Below are positions 3,663-28,910 of a stretch of DNA of 64,000 bases, one piece after another (positions within the stretch are counted from its first letter, which is position 1; the number at the start of each line of letters is the position of its first letter). The notes below the pieces were generated by a model, which saw nothing but the letters and a program-made list of their open reading frames with translations, was not told the DNA's origin and did not search any database. The stretch covers positions 1,600,001-1,664,000 of the forward strand of contig CBDFGR010000002.1 in assembly GCA_965247115.1 (NCBI GenBank), read 5' to 3'. The position numbers and the translations under genes are program-made. The DNA is from Myxococcota bacterium (GTDB taxonomy: Bacteria; Myxococcota_A; UBA9160; SZUA-336).

Positions 3663-4937
3663 CAGGCTGCTGAAAAACTCCTCATCGAAGGGTACCTTGG
3701 GAGCGAGCCCCAAAGGGGGAGGCGTGAGAGGACAGGGGACGCTTCAGGGCGGGATGTTCAGCTACGTGTCGCTGGAGTCGCGGATTCCGGATGATCATCC
3801 GCTTCGAGCGATGCGGCGCATGGTCGACACGGCGCTGCAGCGGCTATCGCCGCGCTTCGACGCGATCTACGCCAGAGGCGTAGGGCGCCCGTCCGTGCCC
3901 CCGGAGCAGCTGCTGCGCGCCCTGCTGCTGCAGGTGCTCTACACCATCCGGAGCGAGCGGCAGCTGGTGGAGCAGCTGGAGTACAACCTGCTGTATCGCT
4001 GGTTCGTGGGTCTGGAGCTTGACGAGGTGGTGTTCAGCGCCACGGTGTTCACGAAGAACCGAGACCGGCTGCTCAAGGGCGAGATTGCCGAGCACTTCTT
4101 CGACGCAGTGCTGGAGCAGGCCGAGACCGAGGGATGGGTGTCGTTGGAGCACTTCACGGTAGACGGGACGCTGATCGAGGCGTGGGCGAGCCAGAAGAGC
4201 TTCGTACGGAAGGACGAGGAACGGAGAGACGACGATGACCCGGGCAACCCGACGGTGAACTTCCGAGGCGAGAAGCGGAGCAACCAGACGCATGCGTCGA
4301 CGACGGATCCCGACGCACGACTCGCCGGTATGAGAGGCCAAGGCGCCCGACTCGCGTACCAGGGACACGTGGTGACGGAGAACCGGAACGGCTTGGTGGT
4401 CGCGGCGAAGCTCACGCAGGCGTCGGGATATGCGGAGCGCGAAGCGGCGCTCGAGATGGTGGAAGGTCTGGGAGGCGGGCGTCGGAGGACATTGGGCGGA
4501 GACAAGGGCTTCGACACGAAGGGGTTCGTGGAAGAGCTTCGAGAGTTGGGCGTGACCCCACACGTGGCGCAGAACACGACGAATCGACGCAGCGCGATCG
4601 ACGGGCGGACGACGCGCCACCGGGGCTACGAACTGAGTCAGCGTTTTCGCAAACGGGTGGAAGAGGTCTTCGGCTGGATGAAGACCGTGGGGCTGATGCG
4701 CAAGACCCGACACCGCGGCACGGATCGGGTCGGCTGGGTCTTCACCTTCACGGCCGCAGCCTACAACCTGATCCGGATCCGCAAGCTGCTGGAGGCCACG
4801 TAGGTCATGTGCGAAACCGCCCCGCGATCAGCGGAGCCCAAGACCGGTTCGAACCGGGAATCGCGCCCCGCCCCTCGGCCGGTGAACCCCCTCGTCGGAA
4901 GGACCACCCCTCAACCAGTCACTTTCTCCGCAGCCTG
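3663..4937 (+). mobile_element. IS5-family insertion sequence, 1275 bp, CTAG target-site duplication
   Basis: Left end CAGGCTGCTGAAAAACT vs right end (revcomp) CAGGCTGCGGAGAAAGT, 14/17 match; CTAG at 3659-3662 and 4938-4941; single transposase ORF. Confidence 0.92.
3724..4803 (+). CDS. IS5-family DDE transposase (DUF772-type N-terminus)
   Basis: MFSYVSLESRIPDDHPLR, GRPSVPPE, VDGTLIEAWAS, GGDKGFD, RKRVEEVFGWMK; GTG at 3724 chosen as likely start. Confidence 0.92.
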   Translation: MRGQGTLQGGMFSYVSLESRIPDDHPLRAMRRMVDTALQRLSPRFDAIYARGVGRPSVPPEQLLRALLLQVLYTIRSERQLVEQLEYNLLYRWFVGLELDEVVFSATVFTKNRDRLLKGEIAEHFFDAVLEQAETEGWVSLEHFTVDGTLIEAWASQKSFVRKDEERRDDDDPGNPTVNFRGEKRSNQTHASTTDPDARLAGMRGQGARLAYQGHVVTENRNGLVVAAKLTQASGYAEREAALEMVEGLGGGRRRTLGGDKGFDTKGFVEELRELGVTPHVAQNTTNRRSAIDGRTTRHRGYELSQRFRKRVEEVFGWMKTVGLMRKTRHRGTDRVGWVFTFTAAAYNLIRIRKLLEAT

Positions 4938-4973
4938 CTAGGAGCGCTCGCGCGAAAGCTTCAGGAATAGAGG

Positions 4974-7754
4974 CTACGGCGAGCGAGTGAAGGGGGCCGC
5001 GTGATGGTAGGCGCGCTCGTAGACCCTGCGCACGTCCACCAGGTCGAGGTCGGTCGGCGGAACCGTACTGTCCGCGTCCGCGAAGAAGTGACCGAGGAGC
5101 TCGAGCACGCGCGGTGTGAGCGAGGACCCGACGCGCAGTCCGCGCGCCGTGGTCAGAGCCTGGGCCAGAGTGGGCGAGTCCGGGTCCTCGTGCTGCCACT
5201 CCGCAAAGAGCGTTGCGCAGAGCCCGGCGCGGTGGGCGCAGGTTTCGCCCAGGATGCTCAGTCGCGCGGCGTCCGGGAGGCTGCCGCCCCAGCGCTCCCG
5301 GTAGCGGCGCAGCAGCGAGTTGCTGGCGCCGGTCGCCCTGACTTCCGCTGTGAGCCTGACGGGCAGGAGCGCGCGGCCCTCGGGAGCGAAGAAGGCGCGC
5401 GCGGCCCTGTGGCTGAGAATGGGATGGGCGATGGTGTGGACCTCGTCGGGCAGGTCGGCCGCGTGCACGACGGAGAGCGGCAAGAGCTCGTGTGCGAGCA
5501 GCTCGGGGAGCGAGTCGATCTGGACGCGGTGAAAGGCCGCGGCGAAGCCGTTTGACCAGCGCTTCTCGAGCTCGTCGAGGTCGATGCGGACGTTCGCGGC
5601 ACGGAAGCCCAGGATCATGAGATCGCCGCGCTGCGAGTACCAGACCCCCACCTGCTCGAAGACCTCACTGAACGTCCGCAGCACCACGCCGACGGTGCGG
5701 GAGTCCGTTTCGTAGGTGTGGAACCACTGCAGGTAGACGCCCTCCGGTGAGAGGCGCGCCCGCGCGGCCTCCAGGAACTCCAGGCTGAAGAGCATCTCGA
5801 CGCCCGTCACCCAGGGGTTGCTCGGCTCGGAGACGATCACGTCGTAGTGTCCCTCGCTGCGGAGCAGCGCGCGGTAGGCGTCGCCGACGATGATGCGTGT
5901 CTTGGGACTCGCGGCAGCACGCTCGTAAGACTCGAAGTACTGAGCGGCCTCCATCACGCCGGTGGAGATCTCCGCAACGCGCACCTCTCGGATCGAGGGG
6001 AGGGAAGTCAGCTCCGCGACGCTCACGCCAGTTCCGTAGCCGACGACGAAGGCGCGTTCGGGCTTTGGGGTCAGGAGCGCTGGCAAGAGCGACGCCATCG
6101 ACATGGTGAGGTAGTCGCCGGGCACGTTGCCGTCCGACTTGCCGTTATTGATGATGGCGGTCACAGGCACACCGCTCGAATCCGGGTAGCGGAAGACCGC
6201 GACGGACGTGGACGGGTCGTCGTTGTAGTAGGCGATGTAGTCGCCGCTGCGCAGCTTGCGGTACTCGGCGAAGAACGTTTCCGCTCCCTCTCTCGAGTAG
6301 GGCAGCGGCTCGCGGTGTCTGAACAGTCCCGCAGATAGCTTGTAAGGGGACCACGCCGGCTGAAGTCCTACGGCAAGGAGCGCGAGGCAGAGGCCGACGA
6401 GCCCGACCGTTCGGCCTCGGGGCGAAACCCGCGCGCAGAGGAGCACGGCGCCGATCGCCAGTGCCATCGTGGCCAGCCAGTAGACCTGATGCAGGTCCAG
6501 CCAGAAGAGCAGGGCGTAGCCGCCGAGCAACGCGCCGAGCAAGGAGCCGAACGTGTTCCAGCTGTAGAGACTGCCGGCCGCGCTCCCGAGCTGTCCCGCC
6601 TCCCTGCGCAGCTGGTGGAAGAGCAGCGGGAGCGTGGCGCCGGACAGGGCGAGGGGCACCAGGAACACGCCGAGAATGGCGCCAAAGACGGCCAGGTGGA
6701 ACGGAAAGAAGTTCGCGTCCTGGTTGCTGAAGCTGGAGCGCAGCAAGTGTCCCCAGTAGGGTGCGTCCTCGATCACCGGGTAGAGCGCCAGCAGGATCGC
6801 GACGAGCAGCCACTGCGAGACCGGGAGCAGTGCCGGAGGGATGCGGCGCAGCGCGGACACCGCGAAGCTGCCGAGCGCGATGCAAAGCACGAAGCACGCG
6901 ACGATCATCGAGAAGGTGAACTGCGAGGCGCCGAGGGCCAGCGCGCCCACACGATTCAGGATGGTCTGGATCGTCATCATGGCAAAGCCAGACAGCAGCG
7001 CGACGCTCGCGCAGACTGTTGCCGGGTGGCGCAGGTGGAGCGCGCCGGCGGGTGCTGGCTCGGACGCGGACTCGGGAGGCGACTCGGACTCCGGCTCGAG
7101 CGCCGAACCCAGGAAGCCGAAGATCCCGCCCGCTCCCAGGTTCACCAGCGCCATCGTCAGCATCACCCCGCCGAGGCCGAGCCACGGAATCAGGAAGAAG
7201 CTCGCGCACAGCGCGCCGGCAAACGCTCCGGCCGTGTTGAATCCGTACACGAAAGCGTGTAGTCGCGTGGAGTCCTCCAGGCTTCGCGCCAGCGACTGGG
7301 TGAGCAGCGGGATGGTCCCGCCCATGAGCACTGACGGCGGGCCGACGAGCAGGGTGCAGAGCCCCGCGTCAATCCCGAAGGCCAGTCCCGGCGACCCGTG
7401 CGGGATCCAGAGCGAGAGCTTCTGGATGCCGAGGAAGAGCAGCGGGAAGCAGAGCGCGTAGACGCCGATCCCGGCTTCGATCATCCCGTAGAGGAGCAAG
7501 AGCCGGGCAGGGCTACCGCCGGAGCAGCTGCGCTGGATACGCCGCCGTGCGACCCGACCAAAGAGCGCGTAGCCCACGGCCAGACCGCCCAGAAAGATAC
7601 CGAGCACCGTAGCCGTGGCCTCGCTGTCGGAGCCGAGCAGGGCGGCGAGGTACTTCTGCCACGTGACCTCGTAGACCAGGCCGGTGAAGCCGGTCAGCAG
7701 GGTCAGGAAGAGAGCAACCCTCCGAACCGTTCCCGAGCTCTCGACTGACGACAT
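4974..7754 (-). CDS. Fused multi-TM membrane domain / spermidine synthase-like SAM-dependent transferase
   Basis: Many TM helices (GFTGLVYEVTW, YGFNTAGA) followed by VVGYGTGVS, VAEIS, GDA, YDVIVSEPSNPW. Confidence 0.85.
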   Translation of the reverse strand: MSSVESSGTVRRVALFLTLLTGFTGLVYEVTWQKYLAALLGSDSEATATVLGIFLGGLAVGYALFGRVARRRIQRSCSGGSPARLLLLYGMIEAGIGVYALCFPLLFLGIQKLSLWIPHGSPGLAFGIDAGLCTLLVGPPSVLMGGTIPLLTQSLARSLEDSTRLHAFVYGFNTAGAFAGALCASFFLIPWLGLGGVMLTMALVNLGAGGIFGFLGSALEPESESPPESASEPAPAGALHLRHPATVCASVALLSGFAMMTIQTILNRVGALALGASQFTFSMIVACFVLCIALGSFAVSALRRIPPALLPVSQWLLVAILLALYPVIEDAPYWGHLLRSSFSNQDANFFPFHLAVFGAILGVFLVPLALSGATLPLLFHQLRREAGQLGSAAGSLYSWNTFGSLLGALLGGYALLFWLDLHQVYWLATMALAIGAVLLCARVSPRGRTVGLVGLCLALLAVGLQPAWSPYKLSAGLFRHREPLPYSREGAETFFAEYRKLRSGDYIAYYNDDPSTSVAVFRYPDSSGVPVTAIINNGKSDGNVPGDYLTMSMASLLPALLTPKPERAFVVGYGTGVSVAELTSLPSIREVRVAEISTGVMEAAQYFESYERAAASPKTRIIVGDAYRALLRSEGHYDVIVSEPSNPWVTGVEMLFSLEFLEAARARLSPEGVYLQWFHTYETDSRTVGVVLRTFSEVFEQVGVWYSQRGDLMILGFRAANVRIDLDELEKRWSNGFAAAFHRVQIDSLPELLAHELLPLSVVHAADLPDEVHTIAHPILSHRAARAFFAPEGRALLPVRLTAEVRATGASNSLLRRYRERWGGSLPDAARLSILGETCAHRAGLCATLFAEWQHEDPDSPTLAQALTTARGLRVGSSLTPRVLELLGHFFADADSTVPPTDLDLVDVRRVYERAYHHAAPFTRSP

Positions 7755-25707: not shown

Positions 25708-25736
25708 TTGACGTCCGTTGGTCAACGTGCTATAAT
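25708..25736 (+). promoter_or_regulatory. Near-consensus sigma70 promoter
   Basis: TTGACG-17 bp-TATAAT with extended -10 TGn; TTGAC-N8-GTCAA inverted repeat overlaps the -35 box. Confidence 0.7.
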
Positions 25737-25757
25737 GCTCGCGCTTATTTCGAACCA

Positions 25758-25780
25758 GCCCGCCTTTCGGCGGGTTTTTT
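25758..25780 (+). terminator. Intrinsic terminator
   Basis: GCCCGCC-TTTC-GGCGGGT followed by a T-run. Confidence 0.75.
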
Positions 25781-25836
25781 GTTGCTCCGATATTTCGCTT
25801 TTCCTCGGAACTAGGTACTTAGCGCACAGGCCAGTT

Positions 25837-26478
25837 CTACCAGCGTGCGGGTTTTGTGAGCGCGCGGCCTCCTGGTAGCACCAGTGGATCGGGGAACTGG
25901 TGCTGGAGATAGCGAGGGGACTTAAGCTTGAACGTGTGTCCCGGGATCAGCTTTTGGAGTTCTTGGTTCTGTCTTGCGAAGGGGAATGCGAAGAAGATCG
26001 ATTTCTCAGGATAGAGAGCTTGGGCAGTCCGCACGGCAGGGGCTAGATCCGTGTCGCCAGTCACCAGCACTGCGATATCACATTGGTCTGCATCGAAGAT
26101 CTCAAGAAGCCTGCAGGCGATTGCTACATCGGTTTCCTTTTCTTCGTATGCAGGTCTCTTCTGCTTGCAGACGTTGCACCACACTTCCTTGAACTTGAAC
26201 CGCCCAAGCTCGACACGCACACCCGTGGATTTGAGCGCTTCAATATATAGTTGGTGTCGCGCGGTCGAACCCGGTCGATAGTGGTCTCTGTGGTCAGCGA
26301 GCGCTGAGAAGTAGTAGATCCTCTCAAGGGTCGCAGTTCGTCCGATCACGGGGAGACACGACTCGAGCAACGATCTGAGATTCAGCCACCGCGTGGATGG
26401 ATGCTGAGGCAACCTCCGCTCGATCTCCTTGGCGGAGTGATAGACGTTGAAGCCGTCAACGAGGAAGACGGTCCGCAC
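25837..26478 (-). CDS. NYN-domain (LabA/DUF88, PIN-like) predicted ribonuclease
   Basis: FLVDGFNVYH, EEKETDVAIA, VLVTGDTDLAPA acidic catalytic motifs; CxxC insert. Confidence 0.9.
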   Translation of the reverse strand: MRTVFLVDGFNVYHSAKEIERRLPQHPSTRWLNLRSLLESCLPVIGRTATLERIYYFSALADHRDHYRPGSTARHQLYIEALKSTGVRVELGRFKFKEVWCNVCKQKRPAYEEKETDVAIACRLLEIFDADQCDIAVLVTGDTDLAPAVRTAQALYPEKSIFFAFPFARQNQELQKLIPGHTFKLKSPRYLQHQFPDPLVLPGGRALTKPARW

Positions 26479-26497
26479 GCTAGCCCCTTAAATCGAG

Positions 26498-26553
26498 AAA
26501 CCCCCCAGGCCTTAGCCTGAGGGGGACCAGCGCGCCCGTAGGCCCGGCTGGGG
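26498..26553 (-). ncRNA. Candidate structured RNA in the NYN 5' region
   Basis: Minus-strand CCCCAGCCGGGCCUACGGGCGCGCUGGUCCCCCUCAGGCUAAGGCCUGGGGGGUUU: a cUACGg-capped hairpin and a 10-bp hairpin, downstream of TTGACT and an AT-rich -10 region. Confidence 0.5.
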
Positions 26554-26609
26554 ATGATGTATATTACTTATCGTCCCAACGCTGCGGAAGTCAAGTGGGG
26601 ATTTCACCG

Positions 26610-26647
26610 AACTCTGCTAAACGGGTGATCACCCGTTTAGCAGAGTT
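26610..26647. repeat. Perfect 38-bp palindrome with no spacer
   Basis: AACTCTGCTAAACGGGTGATCACCCGTTTAGCAGAGTT is its own reverse complement. Confidence 0.95.
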
Positions 26648-26720
26648 TCCCTTATTGTTCAAGGACGGTCTACTCTTCCAATGTATTCAGTACGTTATGG
26701 TCGCAAGCTTCCGCTTATCG

Positions 26721-27725
26721 CTACTCCAAAGGGGATGATCCCGGCAGAGATCTGACTGGCTCTCGGTATCGGAGCCGCTTCCCCTCTCCCCGCTGGATCG
26801 CGCGCACGGTCCGCGCCCCATCGTCCAGCCCTCGCGTGTTGTAGCGGTATTCGAACTCGCTCACGTAGCGGTGCAAGTGCTTCTTGCTCACGCTGTGGAA
26901 GGTCCCGTACATGCCCCGCTTGATGAGCGAGAAGAAGCCCTCAATGGTGTTCGTGTGAACGTCTCCCCGGACGTACTCGCGGGCTCCGTGCTTCACCGTC
27001 TTGTGCCCGCCCATGAACTCCATTCCCACGTAGTCGTAGGACCGCTCCTCATCCGTCATGACTCGGGCGCTGCGATCCACGAATCGCCGCAGATTCCCCA
27101 TGAGGTTGTCCTTGGTGACGCGATCAATGACCTGGGTGCGAACCTCGCCCCCGCGCTCAACCACGGCAAACACGGGCGTCTTGAGCGTGGCGCGCCCGGT
27201 AATGCGCTTGCCTGGGAGGTTGCTGCGGCCCTTGTAGCGCGGCTTGCCACCGACGTAGGTCTCATCGGCTTCGACCGTGCCCGTCAGCTTCCCTCGGGGC
27301 GTCTTGGGCATGGGAGCCATTGCCCAGCGGATGCGGTGCATGAGGAACAGAGCGCTCTTGTAGCTCAGGCCAGTCTCGCGCTGGATCTGGAGCGCGCTGA
27401 CACCTTTCTTAGAGCTGCACGCGCGCCAGAAAGCGTGACACCAGATCCGAAGCGGGATCCGGGAGTCTTCGAAGATGGTCCCTATCCGTACAGTGAATTG
27501 GCGCTTACAGCCCTGGCAGCGCCACAGGAACCGCTTGTTCCGGCCCCCCTCGCGATCCTGCATCTGGTAGACGCTGGTATCACCGCAGCGGGGGCAAGCC
27601 GGGCTCTCGCCCCACCGCTGTCGCTCGACGAACTCCACGGCCGCGAGTTCGTGCCGGCATGCTTCAGGAATCTGAGCGAGCAGCCCGGAACGGGCACCTC
27701 CGACCTTGCCTTGACCCTTTGCCAT
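26721..27725 (-). CDS. IS1595-family (ISXO2-like) transposase
   Basis: Zn ribbon CPRC/CQGC, HTH (KGVSALQIQRETG), VEADETYVGG, VMTDE, HTNTIEGFF, HLHRYVSEFEYRYN. Confidence 0.93.
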   Translation of the reverse strand: MAKGQGKVGGARSGLLAQIPEACRHELAAVEFVERQRWGESPACPRCGDTSVYQMQDREGGRNKRFLWRCQGCKRQFTVRIGTIFEDSRIPLRIWCHAFWRACSSKKGVSALQIQRETGLSYKSALFLMHRIRWAMAPMPKTPRGKLTGTVEADETYVGGKPRYKGRSNLPGKRITGRATLKTPVFAVVERGGEVRTQVIDRVTKDNLMGNLRRFVDRSARVMTDEERSYDYVGMEFMGGHKTVKHGAREYVRGDVHTNTIEGFFSLIKRGMYGTFHSVSKKHLHRYVSEFEYRYNTRGLDDGARTVRAIQRGEGKRLRYREPVRSLPGSSPLE

Positions 27726-27731
27726 GTGAGT

Positions 27732-27760
27732 ATTGTAGTAAGTTCAATTGGTTGCGTCAA
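27732..27760 (-). promoter_or_regulatory. Leaderless sigma70 promoter of the IS1595 transposase
   Basis: Minus strand TTGACG-17 bp-TACAAT, 6 nt before ATG 27725. Confidence 0.65.
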
Positions 27761-27872
27761 GTAATAAGATATTCAGGGTGAGGCCACGACTTAAGAGCAT
27801 TAAGCCCGTAACACGCGAAAAACTGGCGTATTGACGCCAGGGAACCGATAATACGGCCGAGTCTTAACCGGG

Positions 27873-27959
27873 TCCCCCGGGAGGGGCTCGAACCCTCAAG
27901 ACGCGGATAGCGTCGCCCGGTTCCAGACCGGGTGCGTTTGCCAATTCCGCCACCGGGGG
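27873..27959 (-). tRNA. Atypical class-II tRNA-like gene, anticodon UGG (Pro) on a Leu-type body; CCA not encoded
   Basis: Acceptor CCCCCGG/CCGGGGG plus A73; D arm GCG-GAAUUGGCAAA-CGC; anticodon stem CCCGG/CCGGG with loop UCUGGAA; variable arm GACGC-UAUCC-GCGUC; T arm GAGGG-UUCGAGC-CCCUC. Confidence 0.85.
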
Positions 27960-28063
27960 GTGTCCTAGGCGGATCCGGGGAACGGAGAGGTGGGTGGCCA
28001 ACCTGAGCCTCTTCGCCCCCGGACCCTTGGGATCAGGGACGACTAGACGCCCCTAGCGGTATT

Positions 28064-28534
28064 TCATAGGCGAGTTTCCTCCTCGTGTTGCTCCACTATC
28101 TGAGACTGGATGAGTGGTCCTCCCTCCAGCGTCGTGATCGCTTCGTTGATGCGTGATCTGGGGAACCACCACCTACCGTCGCTTCGCTTCTGCGAGTCGT
28201 AGACCTGCCGAACAGGGATTCCGATCTGGTGGAGGCGCTTTTGGACTAAGGCCATCGCCGACCCGGTGCCCTTGGCGCTCTTCATGTGGAATCGCTCGGC
28301 CATTTCAGAAGCTGAAGTACCTCTCAGCCCAGCTTCGGAGATGAACCTCAACGTTTCCACAGCCTTGTGCATGGAGTCCCCAGACCTCGGAGCTGATCCA
28401 TTTCCTCTGGGCTTCGGAGTATCGGAGGTCGTCCTACTCTGGGTGGACTCCCCATACTTGCGAATCAGACGATCGAGGTCCGCCTCCGTCTCGCAGTGGA
28501 CGGAGAGCCCTCGGATCGTCACTCTGTATCCCAT
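28064..28534 (-). CDS. Hypothetical protein, possibly with an HTH (IS cargo)
   Basis: 156-aa ORF with G-rich RBS; TSASEMAERFHMKS segment is HTH-like; no family recognised. Confidence 0.55.
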   Translation of the reverse strand: MGYRVTIRGLSVHCETEADLDRLIRKYGESTQSRTTSDTPKPRGNGSAPRSGDSMHKAVETLRFISEAGLRGTSASEMAERFHMKSAKGTGSAMALVQKRLHQIGIPVRQVYDSQKRSDGRWWFPRSRINEAITTLEGGPLIQSQIVEQHEEETRL

Positions 28535-28655
28535 GACTCTTCCCCCCCCTGGGCATCGACGGCGCGCGTGTCGCCGACGGTCCTTAGGCTTTAGCACGAG
28601 AGTCTGATGTGGCGCAACATCTGACTAGTGATCTGATACCCCATCCGGAGGTTTT

Positions 28656-28829
28656 GTGGCGCACAGAAAGAAGAGACCAGGCCCAGACCCAGAGCGAGTG
28701 AAGATCGAAGGCGACTGGGAGGAAGCCGTGGGAGAAGCGCTGAAGAAGCCGCGACCCGAGGACGGCTGGCCCAAGCCCGAGAAGGGCCAGGACGAGAAAG
28801 AGCCCGAGGAAGACTCCTCGGACTCCTGA
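28656..28829 (+). CDS. Small 57-aa protein, not in the ORF track
   Basis: GGAGG RBS then GTG; MAHRKKRPGPDPERVKIEGDWEEAVGEALKKPRPEDGWPKPEKGQDEKEPEEDSSDS; ends about 40 bp before the right IR. Confidence 0.65.
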   Translation: MAHRKKRPGPDPERVKIEGDWEEAVGEALKKPRPEDGWPKPEKGQDEKEPEEDSSDS

Positions 28830-28910
28830 TTTTTCCGTGGCCTAGCGGTGCGGGGGATGATCCTAGCGCTTGTGCGCTAAGTCCATACTTCCGCTTTTCC
28901 TTCGTTTTGA

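Follow-up and report, generated by a model that had tools for sequence, protein, structure and literature searches.

A passenger-carrying IS1595-family transposon with an NYN ribonuclease cassette and a Leu-bodied UGG tRNA in a Myxococcota genome

Insertion sequences (IS) of the IS1595 family that carry passenger genes are known as transporter IS (Siguier, Gagnevin & Chandler 2009, as cited in PMC3129680 and PMC8101967). An element of this class is present in the DNA analysed here, a window of 64,000 nucleotides from a Myxococcota bacterium (contig CBDFGR010000002.1, positions 1,600,001 to 1,664,000), in which an intact IS1595-family element of 3,088 bp occupies positions 25806-28893. Like the described transporter IS, it combines a single DDE_Tnp_IS1595 transposase with a zinc ribbon, terminal inverted repeats (IRs), an 8-bp target site duplication (TSD) and genes unrelated to transposition. 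It differs from them in that its cargo is centred on RNA, comprising a mismatched tRNA and a ribonuclease (RNase) gene that would be gated by a leader RNA, and, unlike in the relatives examined, its transposase gene is central and inverted with respect to a small open reading frame (ORF). We consider it probable, at roughly two chances in three, that the insertion is one IS1595-family transposon with passengers that was inserted as a unit, and that its cargo consists of separable modules and not of one integrated system.

The closest described counterpart of the RNase is HEC-09, which was published as part of Hma (helicase-methylase-ATPase) defence systems and failed to protect E. coli from the phages with which it was challenged (Payne et al., bioRxiv 10.1101/2024.01.29.577857). 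The RNase of the window belongs to the same family by the PADLOC hidden Markov model (HMM) and is likewise a solitary MARF1-like NYN RNase, whereas its gene is an IS passenger, lying between the transposase and an IR and not embedded in an Hma system. Two precedents exist for the tRNA. Allo-tRNAs and other irregular tRNAs of Acidobacteria are found near toxin-antitoxin (TA) or transposon genes (Mukai et al. 2017, PMC5389517), and the window tRNA resembles them in its long variable arm, in the conflict between its anticodon and its identity, in its place beside genes of mobile or TA type and in its setting in soil bacteria; it differs in having a Leu-type body in place of a Ser-type one and in lying inside a defined IS1595 element, and membership of the allo-tRNAs was rejected because its acceptor and T stems are 7/5, not 8/4 or 9/3. 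The tRNAProX of Streptomyces and Kitasatospora shares with it a hybrid identity with the prolyl-tRNA synthetase (ProRS) determinants G72 and A73 and an anticodon loop without U33, but joins a Pro body to non-Pro anticodons, whereas the window tRNA joins a Leu-type body to a Pro anticodon and G72/A73 (PMC10404621).

Insertion as a unit and separability of the cargo

A sequence-only reading of the window had proposed a passenger-carrying IS1595 element of 3,088 bp bounded by 23-bp IRs (20/23) and an exact 8-bp TSD, with the transposase placed centrally, about 0.9 kb and 1.2 kb from the ends, and with cargo on both sides (an NYN gene with its leader, a palindrome, a tRNA, a hairpin, a helix-turn-helix-like ORF and a 57-aa ORF); it had also called for an empty site to be sought in related genomes. 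This description was borne out throughout. The transposase profiles, IRs, TSD and every cargo component are present (Table 1), 915 bp and 1,168 bp separate the transposase gene from the element ends, and the IRs, which pair at 20/23 over the first 23 nt, extend to 26 nt with 22/26 complementary positions. A congener of the same genus (G002, contig C31) aligns to both flanks at 81% and 87% identity, and at the insertion point about 30 bp with only one TTTTTTCT stand in place of the 3,096 bp of the window (element plus duplication); this locus is therefore the empty site. The IR pattern was found in two of 61 related genomes, at four sites in the element's own genome and one site in the congener, while the reversed control pattern gave no match in the same 61 genomes. 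The G+C content of the element is 59.5% compared with 65.7% for the window.

The transposase matches PF12762 over the entire profile (1-153 of 153) and has an N-terminal zinc ribbon (PF12760, 2.4e-10) in Pfam, so that the features marking the IS1595 family, namely the catalytic domain, the zinc ribbon and terminal IRs with an 8-bp TSD, are all found. Relatives of the transposase, collected from 401 genomes of the phylum and 225 genomes of the class, show 33-65% identity to it, those within the phylum 36-65%. Since an IR core, GGnAAnTAnnTACTT, is common to the window element and at least eight related elements, the outer IRs fit this transposase clade. By the ISfinder consensus ends, the element is a putative member of the ISNwi1/ISNha5-like subgroup. 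The usual layout in the clade is IR, transposase, cargo, small ORF, IR, from which the window departs in the position and orientation of its transposase gene. Only the small ORF is on the plus strand; in order of transcription the minus strand carries the winged helix-turn-helix (wHTH) gene, two hairpins, the tRNA and its terminator, the transposase gene, the 38-bp palindrome, the NYN leader and the NYN gene. An 11-nt remnant upstream of the transposase gene (27753-27763, TACTTGACGCA) agrees at every position with the inner IR half of two related elements (G019 and G026). Complete relatives include the G138 element (2,690 bp, 8-bp TSD GTTCGATG) and an element of 2,723 bp in L101, a metagenome-assembled genome of the Rubrobacteraceae (3676-6398, perfect 23-bp IRs, TSD GATCCACT), in which the gene order is transposase, leader, NYN, with no tRNA and with an ORF of about 200 aa on the opposite strand.

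The sequence-only reading had further argued that a nuclease together with several non-coding RNAs points to an RNA-based defence or addiction module. Part of this argument holds, as the NYN protein belongs to the HEC-09 family, its leader is conserved and odd tRNAs recur in related elements; the part that required the cargo components to travel together does not, because they rarely co-occur across loci. Among 160 NYN loci from many phyla (L054-L213), three have a match to an IS1595 transposase nearby (L101 included), none has a homologue of the wHTH protein or the small ORF by tblastn, and none has a tRNA of the window's type arranged as it is there; in the first 80 of these loci, no protein encoded nearby proved to be conserved. 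Conversely, the related elements G138, G249, G019 and G026 have the small ORF and/or a mismatched tRNA, and no NYN gene. Each cargo part is found in places where the others are missing, and co-occurrence therefore lends no support to an integrated module for defence or addiction. The element would instead be composed of four modules: the 57-aa protein, the winged-helix regulator, the Leu-body UGG tRNA with its own terminator, and the HEC-09-type NYN cassette. No link between the NYN enzyme and the tRNA was seen here, and toxin, antidote and defence roles remain putative.

Table 1. Features of the IS1595-family element and its borders, in window coordinates
Feature	Position	Strand	Description
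Left TSD copy	25798..25805	.	exact 8-bp duplication CTTTTCCT; G002 has one homologous octamer, at its empty site
Left terminal IR	25806..25831	.	CGGAACTAGGTACTTAGCGCACAGGC; 22/26 with right arm; core GGnAAnTAnnTACTT as in related IS1595 IRs
NYN-domain RNase, 213 aa (passenger)	25837-26478	-	HEC-09 family; PF01936 1.9e-10
NYN leader RNA	26493..26579	-	5' AUCAUCC, hairpin P1, terminator hairpin P2 and U-rich tail; ends about 15 nt before GTG start
Perfect palindrome, 19+19	26610-26647	.	fold z -7.7; between transposase gene and NYN cassette
IS1595-family transposase, 334 aa	26721-27725	-	DDE_Tnp_IS1595 (PF12762) 7.5e-40; NF033547 1.4e-54
Transposase promoter	27732..27760	-	TTGACG-17-TACAAT; its -35 lies in the 11-nt IR remnant
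Intrinsic-terminator-like hairpin and T run	27823..27840	-	just past tRNA
Type-II tRNA, 89 nt	27871-27959	-	ARAGORN Pro-UGG; Rfam tRNA 49.7 bits vs gathering score 29
Two hairpins (long one 27971-28026)	27963..28055	-	between wHTH stop and tRNA; z -2.57
wHTH protein, 156 aa (passenger)	28064..28534	-	beta-beta-alpha unit, linker, C-terminal winged helix
Imperfect palindrome, 22/26	28601..28626	.	divergent region between wHTH gene and small ORF
Conserved small protein, 57 aa	28656..28829	+	motif PGPDPERVKIEGDWEEAV...DGWPK; reads outward to right IR
Right terminal IR	28868..28893	.	26 nt; pairs 22/26 with left arm
Right TSD copy	28894..28901	.	CTTTTCCT, identical to left copy

The insertion point is about 20 nt downstream of a terminator hairpin. 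Just left of the insertion is a short unit (25708-25776) in which a strong promoter (TTGACG-17-TATAAT, with TG) is followed within about 20 nt by a terminator hairpin, so that a transcript of only about 35 nt would be produced. The unit is conserved in the congener, and Rfam gave a weak Trp-leader-like match of 22 bits.

The NYN cassette and its leader RNA

The NYN protein matches the PADLOC HEC-09 profile (PDLC04163) over its full length (E 4.3e-43, profile 3-202 of 203). It has 1,789 relatives at E<=1e-5, with a family length of about 212 aa, and the putative active-site residues Asp 8, 117, 142 and 144 are invariant in 26 sequences; the NYN profile gave no match at E<=0.01 among Protein Data Bank sequences. 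Most of the tRNA genes found near NYN loci are convergent with the NYN gene and lie 58-110 nt past its stop codon, which suggests that NYN cassettes sit at island edges or at tRNA-linked insertion sites. Two metagenome contigs have odd tRNAs with ACU anticodons and 6-bp anticodon stems near their NYN genes (L165 1026-1107 and L166 1226-1300).

Upstream of the NYN gene is a structured leader, whose consensus consists of AAUCAUCC, hairpin P1 (CCAG...CUGG), CC, hairpin P2 (CCCUCCGGG UUACGA CCCGGAGGG) and a run of 6-8 U. A hairpin of at least 9 bp is found within 100 nt upstream of NYN at 150 of 154 loci, perfect stems of at least 8 bp at 81/144 compared with 13/105 in a control region, and the start codon follows the terminator stem by 7-56 nt in 139 distinct leaders. 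The leader alignment has 138 rows (L160 and L207 passed the filter but were omitted, the stretches extracted for them being offset or short), and 95.2% of its cells pair compared with 81.7% in shuffles; cells with changes on both sides number 337 compared with 96, and none of 500 shuffles reached either observed value. Compensatory changes occur in 14 of the 16 pairs, and slid controls gave at most 58% pairing. These figures are partly built in for P2, since rows were chosen by the presence of a hairpin plus T run, while P1, which was not selected for, pairs in 94% of cells and covaries at all four of its pairs. The leader of the window scores 60.2 bits (E 1.1e-13) against the resulting covariance model, R1.

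In the element's own genome the only R1 matches are at the two NYN copies, and there were none in 150 other genomes of the phylum. Distant NYN homologues (L032-L037) gave a single weak match of 19.6 bits, on the wrong strand. In the G026 element (L256 2970-6533) an R1-like RNA of 36.1 bits occurs with no NYN gene, and a tRNA-like stretch with UGG, which is degenerate, is convergent with it. The leader has no counterpart in Rfam 15; the window gave no hit at E<=1, and the best hit on another NYN locus (L055) was 18.5 bits compared with a gathering score of 40. These comparisons show the leader of NYN to be a genuine and conserved RNA structure, so far uncatalogued, and together with the NYN gene it makes up a self-contained cassette at 160 loci from many phyla.

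The arrangement suggests how the cassette might be expressed. A -10 box before the leader at 77 of 126 loci, compared with 39/126 after shuffling, is suggestive of a promoter there, from which an RNA of about 65-70 nt with two hairpins would be transcribed, its end being set by an intrinsic terminator that lies 7-56 nt upstream of the NYN start. To judge from the anatomy, a promoter for NYN alone would not fit between this terminator and the start codon, and the RNase would therefore be made only by read-through. In type III TA systems such as ToxIN, a promoter, a small structured RNA, an intrinsic terminator and an endoribonuclease ORF expressed by read-through follow each other in the same way. 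The likeness, which is one of layout, lies in the RNA gene, terminator and nuclease ORF forming one unit; the window leader differs in being a single two-hairpin unit with no tandem repeats, and the nuclease in being an NYN protein and not ToxN, CptN or TenpN. A literature search found no paper joining an NYN domain with type III TA systems. The leader is likely to act as a brake on, or an antidote to, a potentially harmful RNase. It is a covarying motif on a widespread candidate defence nuclease that has no known trigger or control, and as such offers a handle on how HEC-09 is regulated, which might be by read-through of the terminator, by an RNA antidote or by autoregulation. The leader may also be why the cloned HEC-09 gene had no phenotype; the searched passages of the preprint make no mention of a leader RNA (bioRxiv 10.1101/2024.01.29.577857).

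The 38-bp palindrome that precedes the cassette is predicted to be an insulating hairpin or terminator, or else an operator. Long perfect palindromes with arms of 26 bp and 19 bp are present in L085 and L094, about 115-180 nt upstream of NYN and, as in the window, before the promoter and leader.

The tRNA and the small proteins

The tRNA has a 7-bp acceptor stem, a 5-bp T stem and a long variable arm, and its minimum-free-energy fold is the cloverleaf. Its D arm (GUGGCGGAAUUGGCAAACGCA) is near-identical to that of the host tRNA-Leu genes, the anticodon is UGG, and the remaining diagnostic positions are C1:G72, A73, C33 and A37, with a 3' end of ACCC and no encoded CCA. Compared with a canonical elongator tRNA, the cloverleaf is above the Rfam threshold, and U33, the CCA end and an anticodon that matches the body are missing. 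Leucyl-tRNA synthetase relies on A73 and on tertiary features of the D arm, and ignores the anticodon. The determinants of E. coli ProRS are G72, A73, G35 and G36 (PMC10404621). Because a Leu-type D arm and A73 coexist with a Pro-type UGG anticodon and G72, the identity of the tRNA is ambiguous between Leu and Pro; it is predicted to read CCA/CCG and to be charged with leucine and/or proline. Were it charged with leucine, the transposon would move a built-in Pro-to-Leu mistranslation between genomes, and were it charged with proline, it would be an example of the re-assignment of a tRNA body; in either case it is a compact natural case for the study of tRNA identity. The host keeps a normal tRNA-Pro(UGG), and the element has no dedicated synthetase gene. 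Of 200 shuffles of the region with the two hairpins upstream of the tRNA, one folds as well as the real sequence.

Odd tRNAs recur in related elements, which argues that this one is not a one-off capture. The G138 element, whose transposase is 42-44% identical to that of the window, has a tRNA of 93 nt whose D arm is of the Leu type and whose anticodon is UGG; it has U33 and, read from the sequence, G1:C72 and A73, and ARAGORN draws an 8-bp acceptor stem for it. In the tRNA of the G249 element a CAA anticodon is joined to a Ser-type body; the UGG tRNA-like stretch of the G026 element (3,564 bp) is degenerate and was called by neither ARAGORN nor Rfam. This census covered about 20 transposase relatives with ARAGORN, and 16 loci with Rfam as well. 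The combination of a Leu-type D arm and UGG was found in two of 401 genomes of the phylum, both times inside an IS1595 element, and in no viral contig searched. In the literature on IS1595 and tRNA anticodons, no tRNA cargo is apparent from a listing and one passage. Passenger-carrying IS1595 elements can thus hide tRNA genes and small RNAs from annotation. The G249 element (L240 5018-8370), whose right IR was not found, also has a ribbon-helix-helix-type ORF and a pair of ORFs that are PIN-like and DUF433-like, all named by sequence reading. In G263 (L252 1456-1544) a tRNA of 89 nt combines a Leu-type D arm with the anticodon UGC (Ala), and no IS1595 transposase lies within 1.5 kb of it.

The idea that the element decodes its own genes was considered, and the evidence from CCA codons is too weak to claim it: CCA makes up 3/14 of the Pro codons in the NYN gene, 2/13 in the transposase gene, 1/6 in the wHTH gene and 3/8 in the small ORF, against a background of 12%. 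In the PGPDP motif of the small protein (28677-28692) all three prolines are encoded by CCA, compared with the same background, and at one aligned position the transposase genes of the window and G138 both use CCA, the residue in distant homologues being Leu. The host genome has some further oddities by ARAGORN, namely a 90-nt 'Ala-GGC' (C3:504425), an 82-nt 'Ala-CGC' (C3:1231168) and two tRNA-Ser(CGA) copies with altered 5' parts; no tRNA-Leu(UAA) was found in it by this program.

The wHTH ORF more likely starts at the ATG at 28534, giving 156 aa. Its product has 94 relatives at E<=1e-3, and its structure model (predicted local distance difference test score 86.5) has a beta-beta-alpha unit at the N terminus and a winged helix behind it. 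Structure and sequence comparisons gave only weak matches, those by fold to ArsR/MarR-type regulators (best E 0.01), and the ESM Atlas returned hypothetical proteins; the protein is predicted to be a DNA-binding regulator, and the imperfect palindrome upstream of its gene is possibly an operator. No member of this family was detected by HMM in the other related elements examined. The 57-aa protein has four relatives, and its HMM matches ORFs in G026 (5e-13), G019 (2.7e-9), G249 (0.01), G055 (0.014) and the own-genome element at C3:2511494 (0.028), all of which are elements with no NYN gene. By BLASTP, neither the wHTH protein nor the small ORF had a significant match among the G138 ORFs (E about 1).

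Other copies in the genome and rival explanations

The genome contains one full copy of the element. The sequencing runs listed for this DNA number four, all from one study, and include no RNA run. A decayed copy at C3:768804-769846 retains the NYN gene, leader, palindrome and tRNA, but its NYN gene has a frameshifting deletion of 32 nt and its tRNA one extra C, and it has no IRs, no wHTH gene and no counterpart of a 1,152-bp segment containing the transposase gene. At the corresponding junction only an imperfect AGAGTTT/AGAGCAT repeat is found. The tail of an IS256-like transposase gene abuts this copy.

It is possible that the transposase segment (about 26649-27800) is a later IS insertion into an NYN-tRNA cassette that had no transposase, in which case the outer IRs would bound the cassette and the C3 copy would represent the ancestral transposase-free form. 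Exactly this segment, which is as long as a simple IS1595, is absent on C3, where the palindrome runs straight into what lies downstream of the tRNA; an IR-like remnant lies upstream of the transposase start, and the junction is 1 nt from a hairpin, much as the outer element landed just past a terminator. The ends of the segment have no IRs, however, and no convincing IRs were found around the transposases of the window, L010, L011 or L005 that could mark an inner IS. The flanking repeat matches at only 5/7 positions and would be explained just as well by a deletion at microhomology, decay has affected the NYN gene, tRNA and ends of the C3 copy, and L101 has the order transposase, leader, NYN inside its own IRs, so that we regard this nested origin as unlikely. 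More probably, an element with a transposase, leader and NYN gene, like that of L101, fused with the small ORF, wHTH and tRNA end of a related element, which would have left the transposase central and a decayed former IR in its promoter. We also regard it as unlikely that the tRNA is a non-functional hitchhiker, whether a tRNA-Leu pseudogene in decay or what is left of an old integration site, that came along by chance. Its C33 in place of the near-universal U33, the absence of an encoded CCA, a C1:G72 pair that is atypical for a Leu-type body, the degenerate stretch in G026 and the many related elements with no tRNA would agree with this; but its four stems and variable arm are intact, a terminator of its own follows it, as distant a relative as G138 carries a UGG tRNA of similar Leu type, and G249 shows a second kind of mismatch. 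The mistranslating tRNAProX also lacks U33 and is nevertheless active in E. coli (PMC10404621).

An integrated RNA-based module, in which the NYN protein attacks an RNA of translation such as a host tRNA, the element tRNA and/or the leader serves as a resistant substitute or antidote, and the cargo forms one addiction or anti-phage system, seems to us very doubtful. It could draw on the membership of the NYN protein in a candidate defence family, on the unusual anticodon loop (C33, A37) and on some of the associations given below, but it has against it the rarity of co-occurrence at the 160 loci, the tRNA-bearing relatives that have no NYN gene, L101 with NYN and no tRNA, the normal tRNA-Pro(UGG) kept by the host and the failure of HEC-09 to protect E. 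coli against the phages tested (bioRxiv 10.1101/2024.01.29.577857). One transposon carrying separable modules accommodates these observations better, and several points weigh against it in turn. Both copies in this genome, in the window and on C3, keep NYN, leader and tRNA adjacent, some tRNA gene lies within 500 nt of NYN at 15 of the 160 loci, and G026 pairs a leader-type RNA with a tRNA-like stretch in the absence of NYN, so that these two are possibly linked independently of it. Clear tRNA-bearing elements number three (window, G138 and G249) among the relatives surveyed, and C33 with no CCA may make for a poor or non-decoding tRNA. For the cassette, a consensus promoter scan called no promoter for the window leader, no antiterminator was found, and the P2 statistics are affected by row selection; the fusion of two related elements is a history that we infer. 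A wider proposal, that NYN RNases across phyla are gated by the two-hairpin RNA and that IS1595 elements spread them along with mismatched tRNAs, altering RNA decay and decoding, is likewise improbable as a whole; if true, these elements would be mobile packages affecting both processes, with Pro codons read as Leu.

Two more left-end fragments were found on C2. One, at C2:767512-767833, consists of a 3' fragment of NYN with the left IR and lies beside a DNA methylase gene; the other, at C2:773887-773915, is a solo left IR 6 kb away in the opposite orientation. A tRNA-Sec gene is located at C2:761830, and the region is possibly an island in which this element was rearranged long ago.

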